A DNA stretch of 64,000 nt from Candidatus Hodarchaeota archaeon (GTDB lineage Archaea; Asgardarchaeota; Lokiarchaeia; Sigyniarchaeales; SOKP01), in the NCBI GenBank assembly GCA_048886685.1, contig JBHLKM010000018.1, positions 36,324-100,323 on the forward strand, read 5' to 3'. A model generated the notes under the pieces. The model ran no database searches. It saw only the letters and a list, made by a program, of their open reading frames with translations, and was not told where the DNA came from. Below are positions 3,267 to 54,948 of this stretch, one piece after another; the stretch's first letter is position 1; each line of letters opens with the position of its first letter. The position numbers were made by a program, and so were the translations under genes.

Positions 3267-4052
3267 TTAGTTTCCCTTAAATTTACCTTCACGCTTTCCG
3301 AAAAATGCAGCAACTCCTTCTCTTAAATCTTCCGTTTGAAGGGTTAACATTAATTGATCCATATCCATATGCATTATTGCTTGATCTAAGGCACCACAAA
3401 TGTGATTAATAGTTTTTTTAATCATTTGAGCAGGGATTGGGGGCATCACAGCATATTCTTTACCGATCTCAATAGCTCGCTCTAAGAGATTCTCCTTTGG
3501 AACTATTTCACTTATAAAACCCCACTTTAAAAGTGTTTGAGCATCATTATTTTTGCCTAATATTGTCATTTCTTTTGCAAATGTAGGACCAATTAGATGA
3601 ACAACAATAGGAAGTATAGTCCAGCTTAAACTCATTCCTAATCGGCTCTCCGGAAATCCTGCCATACAATTTTCTTCTCCAATACGAAAATCAAGTGCTG
3701 AAGCTATACAACAACCTCCTCCAAATGCACCTCCATTAATGGCAGCGATTGTAATTTGATCCATCATGTATAGCTTACGAGTCATTCTCGGCCCATTTTG
3801 CATTGCTCTTTGTCTTCCCAGTAATGTAGTTGGACCTTGTTGTTCTCTCAAATCTCTTCCACCACTAAAATGTTTACCCGCTCCTGTAAAAATCACAACA
3901 CGCGTTTCTGTGTCTGATTGAAATTCTTCTGTTAAATATTCAATCTCTGTCATTAAAGCAGTACTTAATGTGTTGAGTTGTTCTGGTCGATTAAATGTAA
4001 CAATAGCGATGTAATCGTCGCGTTTTTCTACTATTAAATTTTTATACTCCAT
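3267..4052 (-). CDS. enoyl-CoA hydratase/isomerase (crotonase) family protein
   Basis: TFNRPEQLNTL, FTGAGKHFSGGRDL, IAAINGGAFGGG, FPESRLG, EDLREGVAAFFGKREGKFKG. Confidence 0.92.
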   Translation of the reverse strand: MEYKNLIVEKRDDYIAIVTFNRPEQLNTLSTALMTEIEYLTEEFQSDTETRVVIFTGAGKHFSGGRDLREQQGPTTLLGRQRAMQNGPRMTRKLYMMDQITIAAINGGAFGGGCCIASALDFRIGEENCMAGFPESRLGMSLSWTILPIVVHLIGPTFAKEMTILGKNNDAQTLLKWGFISEIVPKENLLERAIEIGKEYAVMPPIPAQMIKKTINHICGALDQAIMHMDMDQLMLTLQTEDLREGVAAFFGKREGKFKGN

Positions 4053-16570: not shown

Positions 16571-17167
16571 TTATGGCTTAAACCACTCAAAGAAATAATA
16601 TGAATTTGTAAGAGGATTTGCTATAACAAATTTTTTCCTTACAGATGTTGCTAATCTCCCTGCACGCACCATATCTATTGCTGTAATTTCAGCATCATGT
16701 GGTAAAACGTGTACCATAAAGAGTGAATGTTCAAGGCCAGGACCACGGCGATAAACTACAAAATCCGCACCGAACTTTAATCCTGGCCGTGGAATGTATC
16801 CTTTTTCCCTTAGATCTTTATAAATTATGAACTTTTCCTCAAATTTATGGTGTATATTCTTCGCTAGCTTATAAAACTCCTTTGGGCTTAAATCTTTTTT
16901 TTCAATTACATCAAATATTGTAATTTCATCTTTTTCCAATAGGAAATATGCCTCTATTAAAGATAGTTCACTTGGTTTGGAGAAATATTCCAATCTTGGC
17001 TTATTAATTCCAAGTGGGGAACCAAAAAAACCTTTCTTTACATATAAATAAGAAGCGTATAAAGGATTAAAGACAATAACTCTAGAATTTATGAATTTGG
17101 TTGGAATTCTTTCTGGTACGTCAACCTCATCAAGATTTATTTGATTATCCTTTACTTGATTCATCAT
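16571..17167 (-). CDS. endA: tRNA-intron endonuclease, catalytic subunit
   Basis: LSLIEAYFL, YKDLREKGY..RPGLKFGADFVVY, EHS, RLATSVRKK (Tyr/His/Lys triad). Confidence 0.95.
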   Translation of the reverse strand: MMNQVKDNQINLDEVDVPERIPTKFINSRVIVFNPLYASYLYVKKGFFGSPLGINKPRLEYFSKPSELSLIEAYFLLEKDEITIFDVIEKKDLSPKEFYKLAKNIHHKFEEKFIIYKDLREKGYIPRPGLKFGADFVVYRRGPGLEHSLFMVHVLPHDAEITAIDMVRAGRLATSVRKKFVIANPLTNSYYFFEWFKP

Positions 17168-49699: not shown

Positions 49700-51358
49700 A
49701 TGAAAAGAATTCACTCTAAAAGAATACTTCTTTTTATAATTTTGATCTCTTTATGTACATTTGAGACTAATACGCCTATTATAACAAATTTTGGATTAAA
49801 AAAAGCAATTAAACAAGAACCATATACAGCTAGTAGTGCTAATTTAGGGGCCTGGATAATTGTATGTGGTGATAGAAATGATCATCACTTATTAGGGGCA
49901 ATAAGAAATGGATGCGATGAAACTTATGAAACATTAATAAATCGAGGCTTTGATCCCGATGATATATATTATTTGGATGCTGATTATGGGACACCTTCAC
50001 CCCATCGAGAAGCTATATCATATCGAGTGAACATTCAGGATGCAATAGAAACTTGGGCAACAACCAAAGTAGATCCTACTCATGGTCTCGGAATTTATCT
50101 AATTGATCATGGTGGGACCGATTACATTTGTCTTCCAGGAACAGATCTCACTGAAACAGATTTAAATACGTATCTGAATAATTTAGAAACTAGTACAGGA
50201 TGCAGACGCTTTATTATTATTTATGAAGCTTGTCATGCTGGATCTTTTATCGACGCTATTAGTAAGAGCGATCGTATTATAGTTACGTCAACAGATAGTA
50301 TCCATGGCGCATATGTGAATGATGGTCGAACTCATGCTGCTTTTTCTGAAAAATTCTGGTCATCTATTATTGAATGTAAAACTATTGGAGTAGCATTTGA
50401 GGAAGCTGTTGAGTTTGTTGAAGATTCTATCGAAGAAATTCAACTTCCTAAGATAGATGATAATCATGATGATATTGGGCATGGAGTAGATTTATCAGGA
50501 CATTTGCCATATCTAGGTGATGGAGATGATGCATTAAATATCTGGATTGGATCAGGAACAAACTGCCCTTCAGAGATATTAGCCTGGTGTCCCTTAAGAG
50601 GATTTTTGAATTATAGTAGGTTTTATGCTCCAATGTGGGCTTTAGTGGGTACTGGTGCTAATACCCTAATTGATAGTGTGTATGCAAGAATAATTCCCCC
50701 TGGTTATGATCCACCTCCAATTGAAACTGATCAAGAAGGTTCAAAACTCGGTTATATTTCTGAATTATTTCATATTGTTGAATTAACTGATCCTGATACA
50801 GACGGGAATTTTACAGCAGATCTTTTTGATCCAAATGTTTTTACTAATCCAGGAGATTATAAAATCAACATCTATGCCAGAAGTAAAAATGGGACTATAT
50901 CTGATATTATATCAACTTATCTTACTTTAAATGATGATGGATTAGCTCCTCTTGATACGACACCTCCAACAATATCAATATTAAATCCAAGTTCAAGCGA
51001 GACTCTAAATAGTATAACTAACATAATTGTCGAGGGAGATGACGACCAAGCACTTGATAGAATTCAAATTTATATTGATAAAGAATTAGTAAAAGAAGAA
51101 ATAATGCCAGTTTATTATCCTTATCCCGAAGTTACCTACAGTTTAAACCCAACAGAATACTCAAAAGGATCCCATAATATAACCGCAACTGCTATAGATG
51201 AAGCAAACAATATCAAATCAAGCTCTATTAATATAAATATTGAAGAGCAAGAAATAATCCCAGGTTTTAGAATTACTATATTGATTATTGGTTCAATCAT
51301 CGGAATAATAATAGTTTTTAAGTTGAAAATTATAAAGAAAAAGCTAGAGGCTATATAA
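49700..51358 (+). CDS. secreted/surface clan CD cysteine peptidase (C13 legumain-like) with Ig-like domain and C-terminal sorting signal
   Basis: Signal peptide; IYLIDHGG and IYEACHAGSF His/Cys dyad; DTTPPTISILNP Ig-like domain; IPGF + TM + KKK tail. Confidence 0.82.
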   Translation: MKRIHSKRILLFIILISLCTFETNTPIITNFGLKKAIKQEPYTASSANLGAWIIVCGDRNDHHLLGAIRNGCDETYETLINRGFDPDDIYYLDADYGTPSPHREAISYRVNIQDAIETWATTKVDPTHGLGIYLIDHGGTDYICLPGTDLTETDLNTYLNNLETSTGCRRFIIIYEACHAGSFIDAISKSDRIIVTSTDSIHGAYVNDGRTHAAFSEKFWSSIIECKTIGVAFEEAVEFVEDSIEEIQLPKIDDNHDDIGHGVDLSGHLPYLGDGDDALNIWIGSGTNCPSEILAWCPLRGFLNYSRFYAPMWALVGTGANTLIDSVYARIIPPGYDPPPIETDQEGSKLGYISELFHIVELTDPDTDGNFTADLFDPNVFTNPGDYKINIYARSKNGTISDIISTYLTLNDDGLAPLDTTPPTISILNPSSSETLNSITNIIVEGDDDQALDRIQIYIDKELVKEEIMPVYYPYPEVTYSLNPTEYSKGSHNITATAIDEANNIKSSSININIEEQEIIPGFRITILIIGSIIGIIIVFKLKIIKKKLEAI

Positions 51359-51482: not shown

Positions 51483-51647
51483 TTTTTTTATTTAACCAAT
51501 TTAGCCCGATATTTTTTCTAATATAATAATTAACTTTTAAATTCACTAAAAAATATCCAAATTAGGAAATTTGAAATTTTAAAATAGAATCTAGTATTAA
51601 TCTAATTATTATTTAGTCTAAAAAATTAAAAAAAAAATGAATTAAAA

Positions 51648-54027
51648 ATGGAAAAAAGAGGCGCTAAAGTTAAAATAGACGAATATAAAGGGCTACTTGG
51701 TACCATTAAAGGCTTCGAACTCACCACAGGGAAAATTTCTTACGGCGATGAGACTGAATGGGAACCTATGGGACCTCATCCAATGCCCCATATCCCTACA
51801 CTTCGGAACTGGTTTTTCACCCTAATGGACAGGTACAAGCCAACATATATGCCGATATATATACACAATTGATTCGTGTATGTACGGAAATTGCGATATG
51901 TGTTGCCTGTGTACTTATGGAAAGTGCAATCTCTCAAAGGGCAGAACAGGTGCTTGTGGTATTAACATGGAAACGCAAAACGCACGTATAGTAGAGATTG
52001 CATGTTGTATAGGTGCAGCATGTCATTCAGCTCATGGTGATCATCTGCTTCATTGGCTTAAAGAAAAATATGGAAATGTGCCACTTAATTTTGGAAATAA
52101 TATCGCAGTTGAGATGCCACTGACACGTTTAATAATTGGAATGAAACCTGAAACTTTGGAAGATTTAGAAACAGCTATGGAATGGGTTCATTATACATTA
52201 ACACAACTTTTAGCAGCAGGTCATACCGGCCAAGAAAGCTCCCATTTAGATTATGAAGCTAAAAGCTTTTTAGCAGGATTGGCAGATTCAGTTGGCATGG
52301 AAGTATCTGATGCTATACAAATTGCCGCTTATGGAATGCCTGTGGGAGACCCAAATGCTCCAATTGTGGAATTGGGTATGGGTACCTTGGATACTGGGAA
52401 AGCAACAATTTTAATGATTGGTCATAATGTTGCACCTGGAGTAGAGTTAGTAGATTATGTGCGAGAAAAGGGTTTAGATGATAAAGTAGATATCGGTGCT
52501 ATATGTTGTACCGCTCATGATTTAACAAGATATTATGATGGGGCAAAAATCATTGGATCCTACTCAAGACAATTACATTACATTCGATCTGGTTTAGCTG
52601 ATGTTGTAATGGTTGATGAGCAATGTGTTGTTTTGCAAACATACGAAGAAGCTAAGGCTGTAGGGGCTCCTTACATTACAACTAACGAAAAAATTATGGG
52701 AGGATTACCAGACAGAACTGAAGACCCTGTTGATGAAATTGTTGACGATTTAGTCAGCGGAAAACTTGATGGTGTATTGATTTTAGATCCTATAAAAGCG
52801 GGTGCTGTTGCTGCTGAAACTGCAGTAAAGATTAAACCTATAAGGAAAGCTAAGAGTGGTGTCCCAGATGAACAGGGATGTATTGATATGGCCATGAACT
52901 GTAATGGTTGTGGCAATTGTCAGAGAAATTGTCCTAATGATCTACCCCTTGTTGAAGGTGTAAATTTAGCAAAGGATGGGGATTTTTCAGTACTTCAAAG
53001 TGTTTTTGATGAATGTCTTGGATGTGGAAGATGTGAAAAGGATTGTATGAAGGATGTCTCTCCTTTAACCTTAATAATGCACGCATCAAGAGAATATATC
53101 AGAACTGAGAAATATAATTGTAGAGCTGGACGAGGACCAATCCAAGATACAGAAATCAGAAATGTAGGAGCACCTATCGTTTTAGGCGAGATTCCTGGTA
53201 TTGTAGCTATTATAGGTTGCTCTAATTATGCCCACGATATCCACGAATTATACACAATGGCAGAAGAATTCTTAACGCGTAATTATATTGTTGTGGTGTC
53301 GGGGTGTGGTGCTATGGATATTGGTCTAGTCAAAGACGAGGAAGGCAAAACGTTATACGAGAGATTCCCAGGAGATTTCGACCGTGGCTGTTTAGTTAAC
53401 GTTGGAAGCTGTGTTGCAAATGCCTGGATAACTGGTGCAGCCACAAAAGTTGCAAATATCTTTGCGAGAAGGCCATTACGCGGAAATTTTGAAGAAATTG
53501 CAGACTATATTTTGAATCGTGTAGGTGCGGTTGGTGTAGCTTGGGGTGCTTATTCTCAGAAAGCAGCTAGTATAGCAAGTATGGCTAACGGATTAGGTAT
53601 TCCAGCAGTGATTGGACCACATGGTGCTGAGTATCGTCGCATGTATCTTAGCAGATCTGATGATGAAGAGACGTGGAAAGTCTATAATGCTCGAGATGGA
53701 ACTGAAGGACATATTGTAGGTCCTGGACCAGAACATCTTTTAACTCCAGCTGAAAGCATCGAACAAGCTATTTGTTTAGTCGCTAAATTAGCACTACGAC
53801 CTGCTGATAACAGTAAAGGACGGATGATAAAATTATCTCATTGGATTGACTTAGAACGTAAATATAAGGGAGTCAAATTCCCAAATGATTTAGAGAAATT
53901 TATTCGACTTGAAGCAGATATTCCTATTAACATGAAAGATGAAATTCAAGAATATCTAAAAGAAAAAGACTGGGAACCAAAGGAAATTGTGGACCCAACT
54001 TTACTCAAAAGGATGTGTAGAACTTAA
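51648..54027 (+). CDS. cdhA: CO dehydrogenase/acetyl-CoA synthase complex alpha subunit, interrupted by a 34-nt insertion; join(51648..51856,51891..54027) = 781 aa
   Basis: Upstream ORF 51648..51872 has the CdhA N-terminus ([25 protein letters not shown]). Downstream ORF 51880..54027 (+1 frame) has [31 protein letters not shown], VDEQC, two ferredoxin motifs, GCSN, SGC, GSCVAN and WGAYSQKA. Confidence 0.95.
51857..51890 (+). other. candidate bulge-helix-bulge/loop type intron in cdhA mRNA (34 nt)
   Basis: GCCG AT^A TATATACAC aattgattc GTGTATGTA CGGA AA^T; 9-bp intron stem; removal restores the frame and gives ATG CCG ATT TGC GAT ATG (MPICDM). Confidence 0.7.
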
Positions 54028-54096: not shown

Positions 54097-54948
54097 TCAA
54101 TTGCTCTTACTATCATCTCGGGGAATATTCTCCCAAGTGAGATTCTGGCGTTTTTCATCTAAAGAGATTTCACAACTCGGCTTATAGTCTATTTCTAATC
54201 TATTTTCAAAAAGTTTTCGCCCTAATTCCAGCGCCTTTTCCATATTTACGGACGTCCCATTTTGATTAGGGTGTCTTTTTTCCCATTCTTTAAGATTTTC
54301 TTCTGATGTAAAGAATAAAGTAGTAGAACATTGTGATCCAAGGTATACTACTAAATTTTTAGGTTGTTGGGAAGCAATTCGTTCGTCTTTAATCTCAATC
54401 TTAATTTCTTGATTGGAAATAGGATCTTTTGAATTAATAGTAGCATCTTGATTATATGTAAAAGGGAGTCCCAAAGCATCAATAGCACATGAAGCTTCAA
54501 TTGGGCTTAAAATTCTTCCATCCTCTAAAGTTGTAATGTGTTCATATCCAATTTTAGGCATTCGAGGAATAATTTTCTCATCCCGATTTTTTTCCTTAGT
54601 GATTATCCCGATTCTCTCAAGTTTAGATAGAGCATCATCAAGTTCTTGATCTGAAAACCTTAAATTTCGTTCAATTTCTTTGAAAGTATGGATAGAATCA
54701 TATTTAGAATACTGTTCTATTATATAATTAAAAAGTACTTCCTGATTTGGCGACAATCTTACATGAGGAAACCCTCTTCTGGCAAATTGCTTAATTATTT
54801 TTTCTTCAATTTTTTCGTCATATTGAATTCCTAAAGCTTTTTTAGTTTCTTCAATAGATAAAAATTTGCCTGTTTTCTTATATTCACTTAATAGGAATTT
54901 TAAAATCTCCCTTTCTTCAGAATTTAATTCAGAATCTAAACTCTCCAT
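54097..54948 (-). CDS. organomercurial lyase (MerB)-like domain fused to two N-terminal winged-helix-like domains
   Basis: SCAIDALG (Cys-x2-Asp), ATINSKDPISNQEIKIEI, QCSTTLFFTSEENLKEW; two LxxxQ/E..L..I helix-turn-helix-like repeats. Confidence 0.75.
   Translation of the reverse strand: MESLDSELNSEEREILKFLLSEYKKTGKFLSIEETKKALGIQYDEKIEEKIIKQFARRGFPHVRLSPNQEVLFNYIIEQYSKYDSIHTFKEIERNLRFSDQELDDALSKLERIGIITKEKNRDEKIIPRMPKIGYEHITTLEDGRILSPIEASCAIDALGLPFTYNQDATINSKDPISNQEIKIEIKDERIASQQPKNLVVYLGSQCSTTLFFTSEENLKEWEKRHPNQNGTSVNMEKALELGRKLFENRLEIDYKPSCEISLDEKRQNLTWENIPRDDSKSN

Follow-up and report, generated by a model that had tools for sequence, protein, structure and literature searches.

Why should cdhA, a central carbon-fixation gene, be divided over two reading frames in an Asgard archaeon? 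The locus lies in a stretch of 64,000 nucleotides (nt) of contig JBHLKM010000018.1 (assembly GCA_048886685.1, positions 36,324 to 100,323 of the forward strand), referred to hereafter as the window, which comes from a 4.4-Mb metagenome-assembled genome (MAG) of a Loki-type Asgard archaeon (Promethearchaeota). Coordinates are those of the window unless stated otherwise; G-numbers denote genomes, with G000 being the genome of the window, and L-numbers denote loci extracted from related genomes and contigs. The listing of open reading frames (ORFs) contained a 74-amino-acid (aa) ORF on the plus strand (51648..51872) which ends in a TGA stop codon at 51870-72. An open stretch in the +1 frame, 51826 to 54027, overlaps the 74-aa frame by 47 nt (51826-51872) and has an ATG at 51880 that opens a 715-aa ORF. 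Comparative data, presented below, suggest that the 34 nt at 51857-51890 are very probably a tRNA-type mini-intron of the cdhA pre-mRNA, which would depend on the splicing endonuclease EndA and a relaxed bulge-helix-bulge (BHB) motif. The cutting and joining, and the parts given in it to EndA and the ligase RtcB, are predicted from sequence.

The identity of the gene was established with the NCBIfam cdhA model TIGR00314, against which exon 2 alone scored 986 bits, compared to a cut-off of 781. Model positions are contiguous at the joint, with exon 1 ending and exon 2 beginning at position 62, and exon 2 contains the Pfam domains Prismane and 4Fe-4S dicluster. A search with exon 1 against 40 related genomes returned about 20 uninterrupted genes of the same genus (783-792 residues), and alignment to these 20 genes placed the gap, which is exactly 34 nt long, just before the last base of a conserved isoleucine codon. 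The solved CdhA structures 8riu, 9c0q, and 3cf4 align without a gap across this joint in the intronless orthologue, whose top PDB match was 8riu_A. Excision of 51857-51890 restores the frame and a conserved Pro-Ile-Cys joint, and yields a coding sequence of 209 + 2134 nt, or 781 codons, with no further lesion in these 2343 nt. Among further cdhA loci from public MAGs, 69 of 80 gave a single uninterrupted match, although alignment at the DNA level later revealed in-frame inserts in some of them. Overall, the 34 nt are missing from about 100 uninterrupted homologues. Judged by homology alone the joint is ambiguous, as the isoleucine codon can be completed either by U51891 (51857-51890 removed) or by A51857 (51858-51891 removed); the cuts at 51856/57 and 51890/91 were chosen only because of the BHB rule. 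An earlier reading of the same DNA without database searches (the original prediction) had described cdhA in two frames with exactly 34 extra nt, a set of helices, bulge, and loops around them, and an excision AU^A ... AA^U giving a protein of 781 aa. Both the frames and the gap were recovered, each structural element is present in the sequence where it had been placed, and the proposed joint falls exactly where intronless homologues join.

The insert occurs in identical form in two near-identical strains (JBHLMC010000005.1 and JBHLKT010000015.1, with 1 and 4 differences in 3348 nt), the near-identical MAGs being GCA_048938465.1 and GCA_048886345.1, and the 74-aa ORF has also been recorded from a Logan assembly. 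No other copy of the 34-mer was found in G000 with up to 8 mismatches allowed, and the possibility of a multi-copy mobile or proliferating repeat was rejected on the grounds that the cdhA copy is the only one in the genome.

How well the insert and its flanks match known splicing motifs depends on the class of motif. The strict hBHBh' class has exactly 4 base pairs in its central helix and two opposed 3-nt bulges; in G000 the central helix consists of three G-C pairs plus a G.A, and only the 5' bulge is canonical, with the 3' site lying in a 7-nt loop. The relaxed HBh' or bulge-helix-loop (BHL) class comprises a helix, one canonical 3-nt bulge, and then the hairpin h', with the other site in a loop, and this is the arrangement found here, with an h' of 9 bp that stacks directly onto the intron strand of the central helix. 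According to the published EndA rule, the cuts fall between the second and third bulge residues (PMC2738675). Relaxed motifs of the HBh' type require an (alpha-beta)2 or epsilon2 EndA, and Asgard archaea have been assigned a broad-specificity (alpha-beta)2 enzyme (PMC5829648). A central helix of four pairs is present in the L003 homologue (counting a G.U) and in 9 of 15 other inserts. The z-score of the fold in G000 was only -2.1; the L003 sequence has the BHB core as its minimum-free-energy fold, at 70% of the ensemble. The case that the motif exceeds chance comes from comparative data; folding energy alone gives it no support.

Inserts of 34 nt at the identical nucleotide were found in L003 (G014), in L063 (LW60_5), and in the metagenome contigs L184 and L185, and G020 (L006/L125) carries a degenerate version of 33 nt. 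Across 4 homologous introns the intron stem is 97% paired, with double substitutions in two pairs (A-U to G-C and C-G to U-A), and the exon-exon helix is 85% paired across the homologues. The outer pair of the central helix is G.A in G000, G.U in L003, and G-C in L063. Between G000 and L003, 6 of 34 intron positions differ, as against 64% of synonymous sites. The ratio of nonsynonymous to synonymous substitution rates (dN/dS) was 0.030 between these two intron-bearing genes, 0.027-0.037 for intron-bearing versus intronless genes, including the three-intron gene L185, and 0.024 for an intronless pair. Judging from these ratios, purifying selection on intron-bearing cdhA is the same as on intronless cdhA and is not relaxed. 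The original prediction had proposed aligning Asgard cdhA genes for presence or absence of the insert and for compensatory stem changes; this alignment indeed showed that the helix geometry is kept in homologous inserts. With conserved pairing, purifying selection, and the shared cut rule described below, its reading as a relaxed BHB intron gains strong support from comparative sequence data.

Subsequently, all cdhA loci were aligned at the DNA level to an intronless reference, which located inserts of 29-34 nt at seven or more positions across species, with up to three in a single gene. L185 (Ga0114920_10002488) has three of these mini-introns (3364-3392, 3472-3505, and 3640-3669, being 29, 34, and 30 nt long), and their excision leaves a frame of 786 residues. 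L019/L092 and L107/L127 have two introns around a 20-nt micro-exon which encodes a Cys-Asp-Met-Cys-Cys-Leu stretch. Full frames of 781-795 aa were obtained for L063, L090, L092, L107, L114, L127, and L185 once the inserts were removed, and no other lesions were found in nine further intron-bearing cdhA genes. In L019 and L107 the intron separates the isoleucine codon into A and UU, and an excision that is off by even one nucleotide would therefore not do. Of 15 inserts, 13 begin with A, and all end in AA or AU apart from the misaligned, degenerate L006 copy. The seven cdhA intron positions are all confined to codons 1-170 out of 781 (reference nt 130-510 in a total of 2343).

A single rule describes where the inserts begin and end. 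All of them parse as four exon bases, two bases, the cut, one base, a hairpin of 5-10 bp, four complementary bases, two bases, and the second cut; the rule accounts for 15 other inserts in cdhA and other genes as well as for two tRNA introns. The two 4-nt strands form on average 3.4 of 4 pairs in register, compared to about 1.5 in shifted registers, and the drop in pairing on both sides of the register agrees with a helix length of exactly four pairs. For comparison, 294 other G000 hairpins of the same geometry served as a null set and had a mean central-helix pairing of 1.66, with 4/4 pairs in 2.4%. These 294 candidates came from a genome scan for hairpins whose excision fuses long ORFs, and with chance-level pairing and fusions of neighbouring genes being dominant, the scan was useless as a census.

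For an unbiased screen, 1.2 Mb of the sister genome G005 (CP070831.1) was compared to G000 by blastn, and every gap of 20-60 nt with well-aligned flanks was inspected. The coding-strand inserts in G000 that emerged were those in cdhA, in uvrB (29 nt), in an acetoacetate-CoA ligase gene (30 nt), and in a short ORF (30 nt); the original prediction had suggested looking for further genes with BHB-flanked inserts in this genome. The short-ORF insert may be another intron near a gene start, and the 29-nt insert found in G005 may interrupt a small gene or a non-coding RNA as an intron. Two of the screen hits are tRNA introns of G005, and since the screen hits share the rule, mRNA inserts and tRNA introns of the genus share size and geometry. 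All features are collected in Table 1.

Table 1. Positions of the cdhA exons, the putative mini-intron and its motif, the EndA gene, and related inserts
Feature	Position	Strand	Description
cdhA exon 1	51648..51856	+	209 nt; 3' end is the first two bases of an Ile codon; TIGR00314 positions 5-62
cdhA exon 2	51891..54027	+	includes stop codon; TIGR00314 positions 62-761, 986 bits
Putative 34-nt mini-intron	51857..51890	+	1 bulge nt + 9-nt stem arm + 9-nt loop (TGA 51870-72) + 9-nt stem arm + 4-nt central-helix strand + 2 nt
5' arm of exon-exon helix	51841..51850	+	pairs with 51896-51905; 10 bp, one G.U; in minimum-free-energy fold
Central-helix strand in 5' exon, GCCG	51851..51854	+	pairs with 51885-88; ends 2 nt before 5' cut
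5' bulge AUA, 3 nt	51855..51857	+	predicted cut between 51856 and 51857
Intron hairpin h'	51858..51884	+	51858-66/51876-84, 9 bp, one G.U; loop 51867-75; in minimum-free-energy fold
Central-helix strand in intron, CGGA	51885..51888	+	three G-C pairs plus G.A with 51851-54
3' loop, 7 nt, in place of 3-nt bulge	51889..51895	+	predicted cut between 51890 and 51891; 4 extra nt on 3' side
3' arm of exon-exon helix	51896..51905	+	in minimum-free-energy fold
EndA, probable catalytic (alpha) subunit	16571..17167	-	Pfam PF01974, PF02778
cdhA insert	reference nt 130		L063, L090, L185
cdhA insert	reference nt 208		L019/L092 and L107/L127; two unrelated sequences
cdhA insert	reference nt 209		34-nt family
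cdhA insert	reference nt 216		L114
cdhA insert	reference nt 228		L019/L092 and L107/L127; related by G-C to A-U double change
cdhA insert	about reference nt 340		L185
cdhA insert	reference nt 510		L125
Putative uvrB mini-intron, 29 nt	G000:C3:215413-215441 (L181:1501-1529)	+	exons at NCBIfam uvrB 2-96 and 97-595; CCAG/CUGG, 4/4 pairs; absent in G005
Putative acetoacetate-CoA ligase mini-intron, 30 nt (1+9+5+9+4+2)	G000:C40:3422-3451 (L182:1501-1530)	+	exons at model 3-319 and 320-654; absent in G005
Short-ORF insert, 30 nt	G000:C4:207083-207112 (L183)	-	9-bp hairpin, central helix 4/4; 23 codons in; ORF without family match
tRNA-Thr and tRNA-Leu introns, 30 and 33 nt	G005:C1:639538-639567 and 1033319-1033351	-	same cut rule, 4/4 pairs; absent from G000 orthologues
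29-nt insert	G005:C1:1121957-1121985	+	central helix 4/4; absent from G000:C1 near 195586; no long ORF there

Candidate machinery for this type of splicing, which would call for a broad-specificity EndA with two subunits and an L1 loop and for an RtcB ligase, is encoded in G000, which has two EndA paralogues and one RtcB. One EndA gene lies in the window, where the original prediction had located it, and was found to be on the minus strand. Its product is most like crenarchaeal catalytic subunits, with chain B of the Aeropyrum pernix structures 3p1z/3ajv and chain B of 2zyz as best PDB matches; the second paralogue is at G000:C5:74654-74902, with its ORF on the minus strand of L033 at 1438-2040. 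ARAGORN called introns in 21 of 35 tRNA genes of G000, with some of the calls being implausible, and interruptions have probably left many tRNA genes of this genome undetected.

If the insert is an intron, the cdhA transcript would fold locally into a relaxed HBh'-type motif, in which the exon bases 51851-54 pair with the intron bases 51885-88. Past this short helix, the 5' strand would continue with a 3-nt bulge and the 9-bp intron hairpin, and the 3' strand with a loop that is closed by the 10-bp exon-exon helix. The splicing endonuclease, probably a two-subunit EndA with one subunit encoded at 16571-17167, would cut both strands 2 nt past the short helix, at 51856/57 and 51890/91. RtcB would then ligate the exons, the 34-nt piece would be released, probably as a circle, and the ligated mRNA would give a normal 781-aa CdhA, with the isoleucine codon rebuilt across the joint. 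The spliced joint was not found in JGI metagenome contigs, which is uninformative as this collection is mostly DNA. The best match to the spliced protein, P0001, turned out not to be a transcript but a gene without the intron from another species.

Several observations weigh against a functional intron in this gene. The motif in G000 is relaxed at both the G.A pair and the 3' cut, which lies in a 7-nt loop with no 3-nt bulge, and the BHB-like fold is not the minimum in this genome (-19.0 vs -20.8 kcal/mol, i.e. 1.8 above the minimum and ~6% of the ensemble). G000 also has a second cdhA paralogue with an uninterrupted open frame of 788 aa (G000:C2:340112; L030), and loss of the split copy might hence be tolerated. 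The claim of the original prediction that a Wood-Ljungdahl enzyme needs splicing in this archaeon has to be softened accordingly. Lastly, the closest relative L131 is intronless while a near-identical intron is present in L063 from a distant lineage, and a recent transfer would weaken the dN/dS argument for this copy.

The surroundings of the gene show no cdh operon at the window locus. The upstream neighbour (49700-51358, plus strand) encodes a secreted peptidase C13 with an Ig-like domain, and the downstream neighbour (54097-54948, minus strand) a MerB-like protein with a winged-helix N-terminus. The cdhB and cdhC genes lie together on another contig (G000:C3:59475-60525), linked to neither of the cdhA copies.

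Which other processes could produce such a locus? An inactivating hairpin insertion would make this copy a pseudogene, tolerated thanks to the intact paralogue at G000:C2:340112; the missing linkage of both copies to cdhB/cdhC, the absence of the insert from the nearest relative L131, and the related L006/L125 locus, with its degenerate 33-nt version, altered cysteine codons, and a G+C-rich foreign stretch with Ns, all fit this view. Even so, decay is very unlikely, since neither the 2343 nt of this gene nor nine other intron-bearing cdhA genes show another lesion, and the dN/dS of 0.03 equals that of intronless genes. Compensatory changes have preserved both the hairpin and the 4-bp helix, the insert is single-copy rather than a proliferating repeat, and the identical geometry recurs in single-copy genes such as uvrB. 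Intact frames and low dN/dS thus contradict the disrupting insertion that the original prediction had listed as an alternative. Its other alternatives fared no better. Re-initiation at ATG 51880, which would amount to a split gene whose 74-aa N-terminal peptide and 715-aa protein are made separately and then assemble, draws on the fact that this ATG does open a 715-aa ORF. This is hardly credible, as L003 and L063, with the same intron, have ATA in place of this codon, each product would carry four non-native residues at its end or its start beside the first cluster cysteine, and the scheme is unworkable where a gene has two or three inserts and a micro-exon of 20 nt. That the insert is an assembly or sequencing artefact is practically excluded, because the identical insert is present in three NCBI MAG assemblies; the 74-aa ORF also comes from a Logan assembly, and homologous inserts occur in MAGs and metagenome contigs of several independent studies.

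The insert could also stay in the mRNA and be dealt with by the ribosome, either by a hop over it or by a +1 shift within the 47-nt overlap at 51826-51872. The stop codon sits in the hairpin loop just past the break, the two frames overlap, and a hop from the isoleucine codon 51855-57 to 51889-91 would yield the same protein. Such recoding is extremely improbable: the take-off codon AUA (51855-57) does not match the landing codon AAU (51889-91), as a bypassing element would need, and a +1 shift would insert 11 residues found in no homologue. These added residues are unconserved as protein, the compensatory stem changes alter both frames, and the A^UU-split isoleucine codon and the 20-nt micro-exon of L019/L107 are beyond repair by a hop or a single shift. 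Removal from RNA by an agent other than EndA and RtcB, such as another nuclease or a self-cleaving activity, would be compatible with a 3' site that is not a canonical bulge and a motif that is a minor fold in G000, and with EndA having a predicted role. It is nonetheless very unlikely. No Rfam family, ribozyme or otherwise, matched within 51500-52200, and at 34 nt the insert is below the size of any self-splicing intron known. The tRNA introns of the sister genome share size and cut rule with the insert, and this cut rule equals the one published for EndA (PMC2738675).

An EndA-dependent intron being by far the preferred reading, its history can be considered next. FastTree analysis of 107 cdhA proteins placed the window gene in a well-supported clade of eight rows, in which the closest relative L131 (96% identical) and L004/L005 have no intron and L003 has one, and these mixed states require at least two precise losses or gains. 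The introns L063:1178-1211 and L003:1710-1743 are 91% identical (3 differences), while their flanking exons differ by ~32% and the genes belong to distant clades. This similarity hints at intron transfer or gene conversion, which the data do not separate from an ancient origin with many losses. The cdhA gene of G020 has a G+C-rich stretch, a run of Ns, and altered cluster cysteines beside its degenerate intron (L006:1813-2160 and L125:1282-1630), and is either a chimeric scaffold or a decaying copy.

A wider idea, which I regard as possible but would sooner doubt than accept, is that mini-introns of 29-34 nt form a class that is actively spreading through the protein-coding genes of Promethearchaeota, with the cdhA intron as one of its copies. 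It is suggested by the 91%-identical intron in distant lineages with ~32% different exon flanks, and by the fact that at least seven cdhA positions were colonised independently, with sister species differing in the positions they carry. If true, endonuclease-spliced introns would be lost precisely and gained repeatedly, be it by transfer, by gene conversion, or by reverse splicing. The closest archaeal relatives of eukaryotes would then already run a protein-only regime of 'genes in pieces', possibly with conditional splicing of some messages. A regulatory role of the cdhA intron itself is unsupported.

What appears to be new is a probable EndA-type intron in a central carbon-fixation gene of an Asgard archaeon, and the invasion of this gene at many positions in relatives. 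If confirmed, it would mean that the closest archaeal relatives of eukaryotes have interrupted protein genes and a general cut-and-join step for mRNA. Gene callers report such genes as broken or partial, and metabolic reconstructions from Asgard MAGs would then be affected. The cdhA gene would also be a tractable case for studying the origin, spread, and loss of introns, and for asking how splicing can coexist with the coupling of transcription to translation.

Among known systems, the splicing of HAC1 and XBP1 mRNAs is likewise a non-spliceosomal, protein-only cut-and-join reaction of an mRNA that changes the frame. There, RtcB or Trl1 ligates the exons after the cut by IRE1, with RtcB-type ligation being used in metazoan splicing of the XBP1 type. 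Unlike in cdhA, the nuclease is IRE1 and the motif consists of two stem-loops. That reaction is a regulated stress switch, whereas none of the cdhA results points to regulation, and the analogy drawn in the original prediction is unsupported beyond the shared type of ligase. Translational bypass elements, such as those of T4 gene 60 and the byps of Magnusiomyces mitochondria, are short hairpin inserts with stop codons in otherwise intact genes. They resemble the cdhA insert in being short and hairpin-bearing with a stop codon inside; in contrast to it, they are retained in the mRNA and depend on a take-off codon that matches the landing codon, which cdhA does not offer, whereas the codons split across inserts in relatives of this cdhA require removal at the nucleotide level.

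The non-canonical tRNA introns of Asgard and TACK archaea (PMC5829648; bioRxiv 10.64898/2026.10.13.758758) are closer in kind. They belong to the same size class and follow the same cut rule, as seen through the two G005 tRNA introns, are presumed to be processed by the same enzymes, and are frequently gained and lost. The cdhA insert differs in that its host is an mRNA, with no tRNA body to aid recognition, so that the coding sequence supplies the exon half of the motif, and the unspliced RNA can be translated to a truncated product. The 2026 preprint on Asgard tRNA introns (bioRxiv 10.64898/2026.10.13.758758) deals with tRNA only.

In the literature searched, cbf5 was the only documented case of an archaeal mRNA intron of the EndA type. 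This intron of crenarchaeal cbf5 pre-mRNA (Watanabe 2002; Yoshinari 2006; Yokobori 2009, PMC2738675) is, like that proposed for cdhA, a short intron in a protein-coding frame, has an unconventional or relaxed BHB at the exon-intron borders that is cut between the second and third bulge residues, is linked to a hetero-oligomeric EndA, and varies in presence and absence among relatives. Spliced cDNA and in vitro cleavage exist for cbf5, while the cdhA intron is predicted from sequence. The two cases also differ in that cbf5 has one intron position, in the codon of the catalytic aspartate, whereas introns occur at seven or more positions in cdhA, which has a maximum of three per gene and micro-exons of 20 nt and is a gene for a metabolic enzyme in the Promethearchaeota (Asgard) lineage. 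The interest of the present case thus lies in its lineage, its gene, and its intron density.

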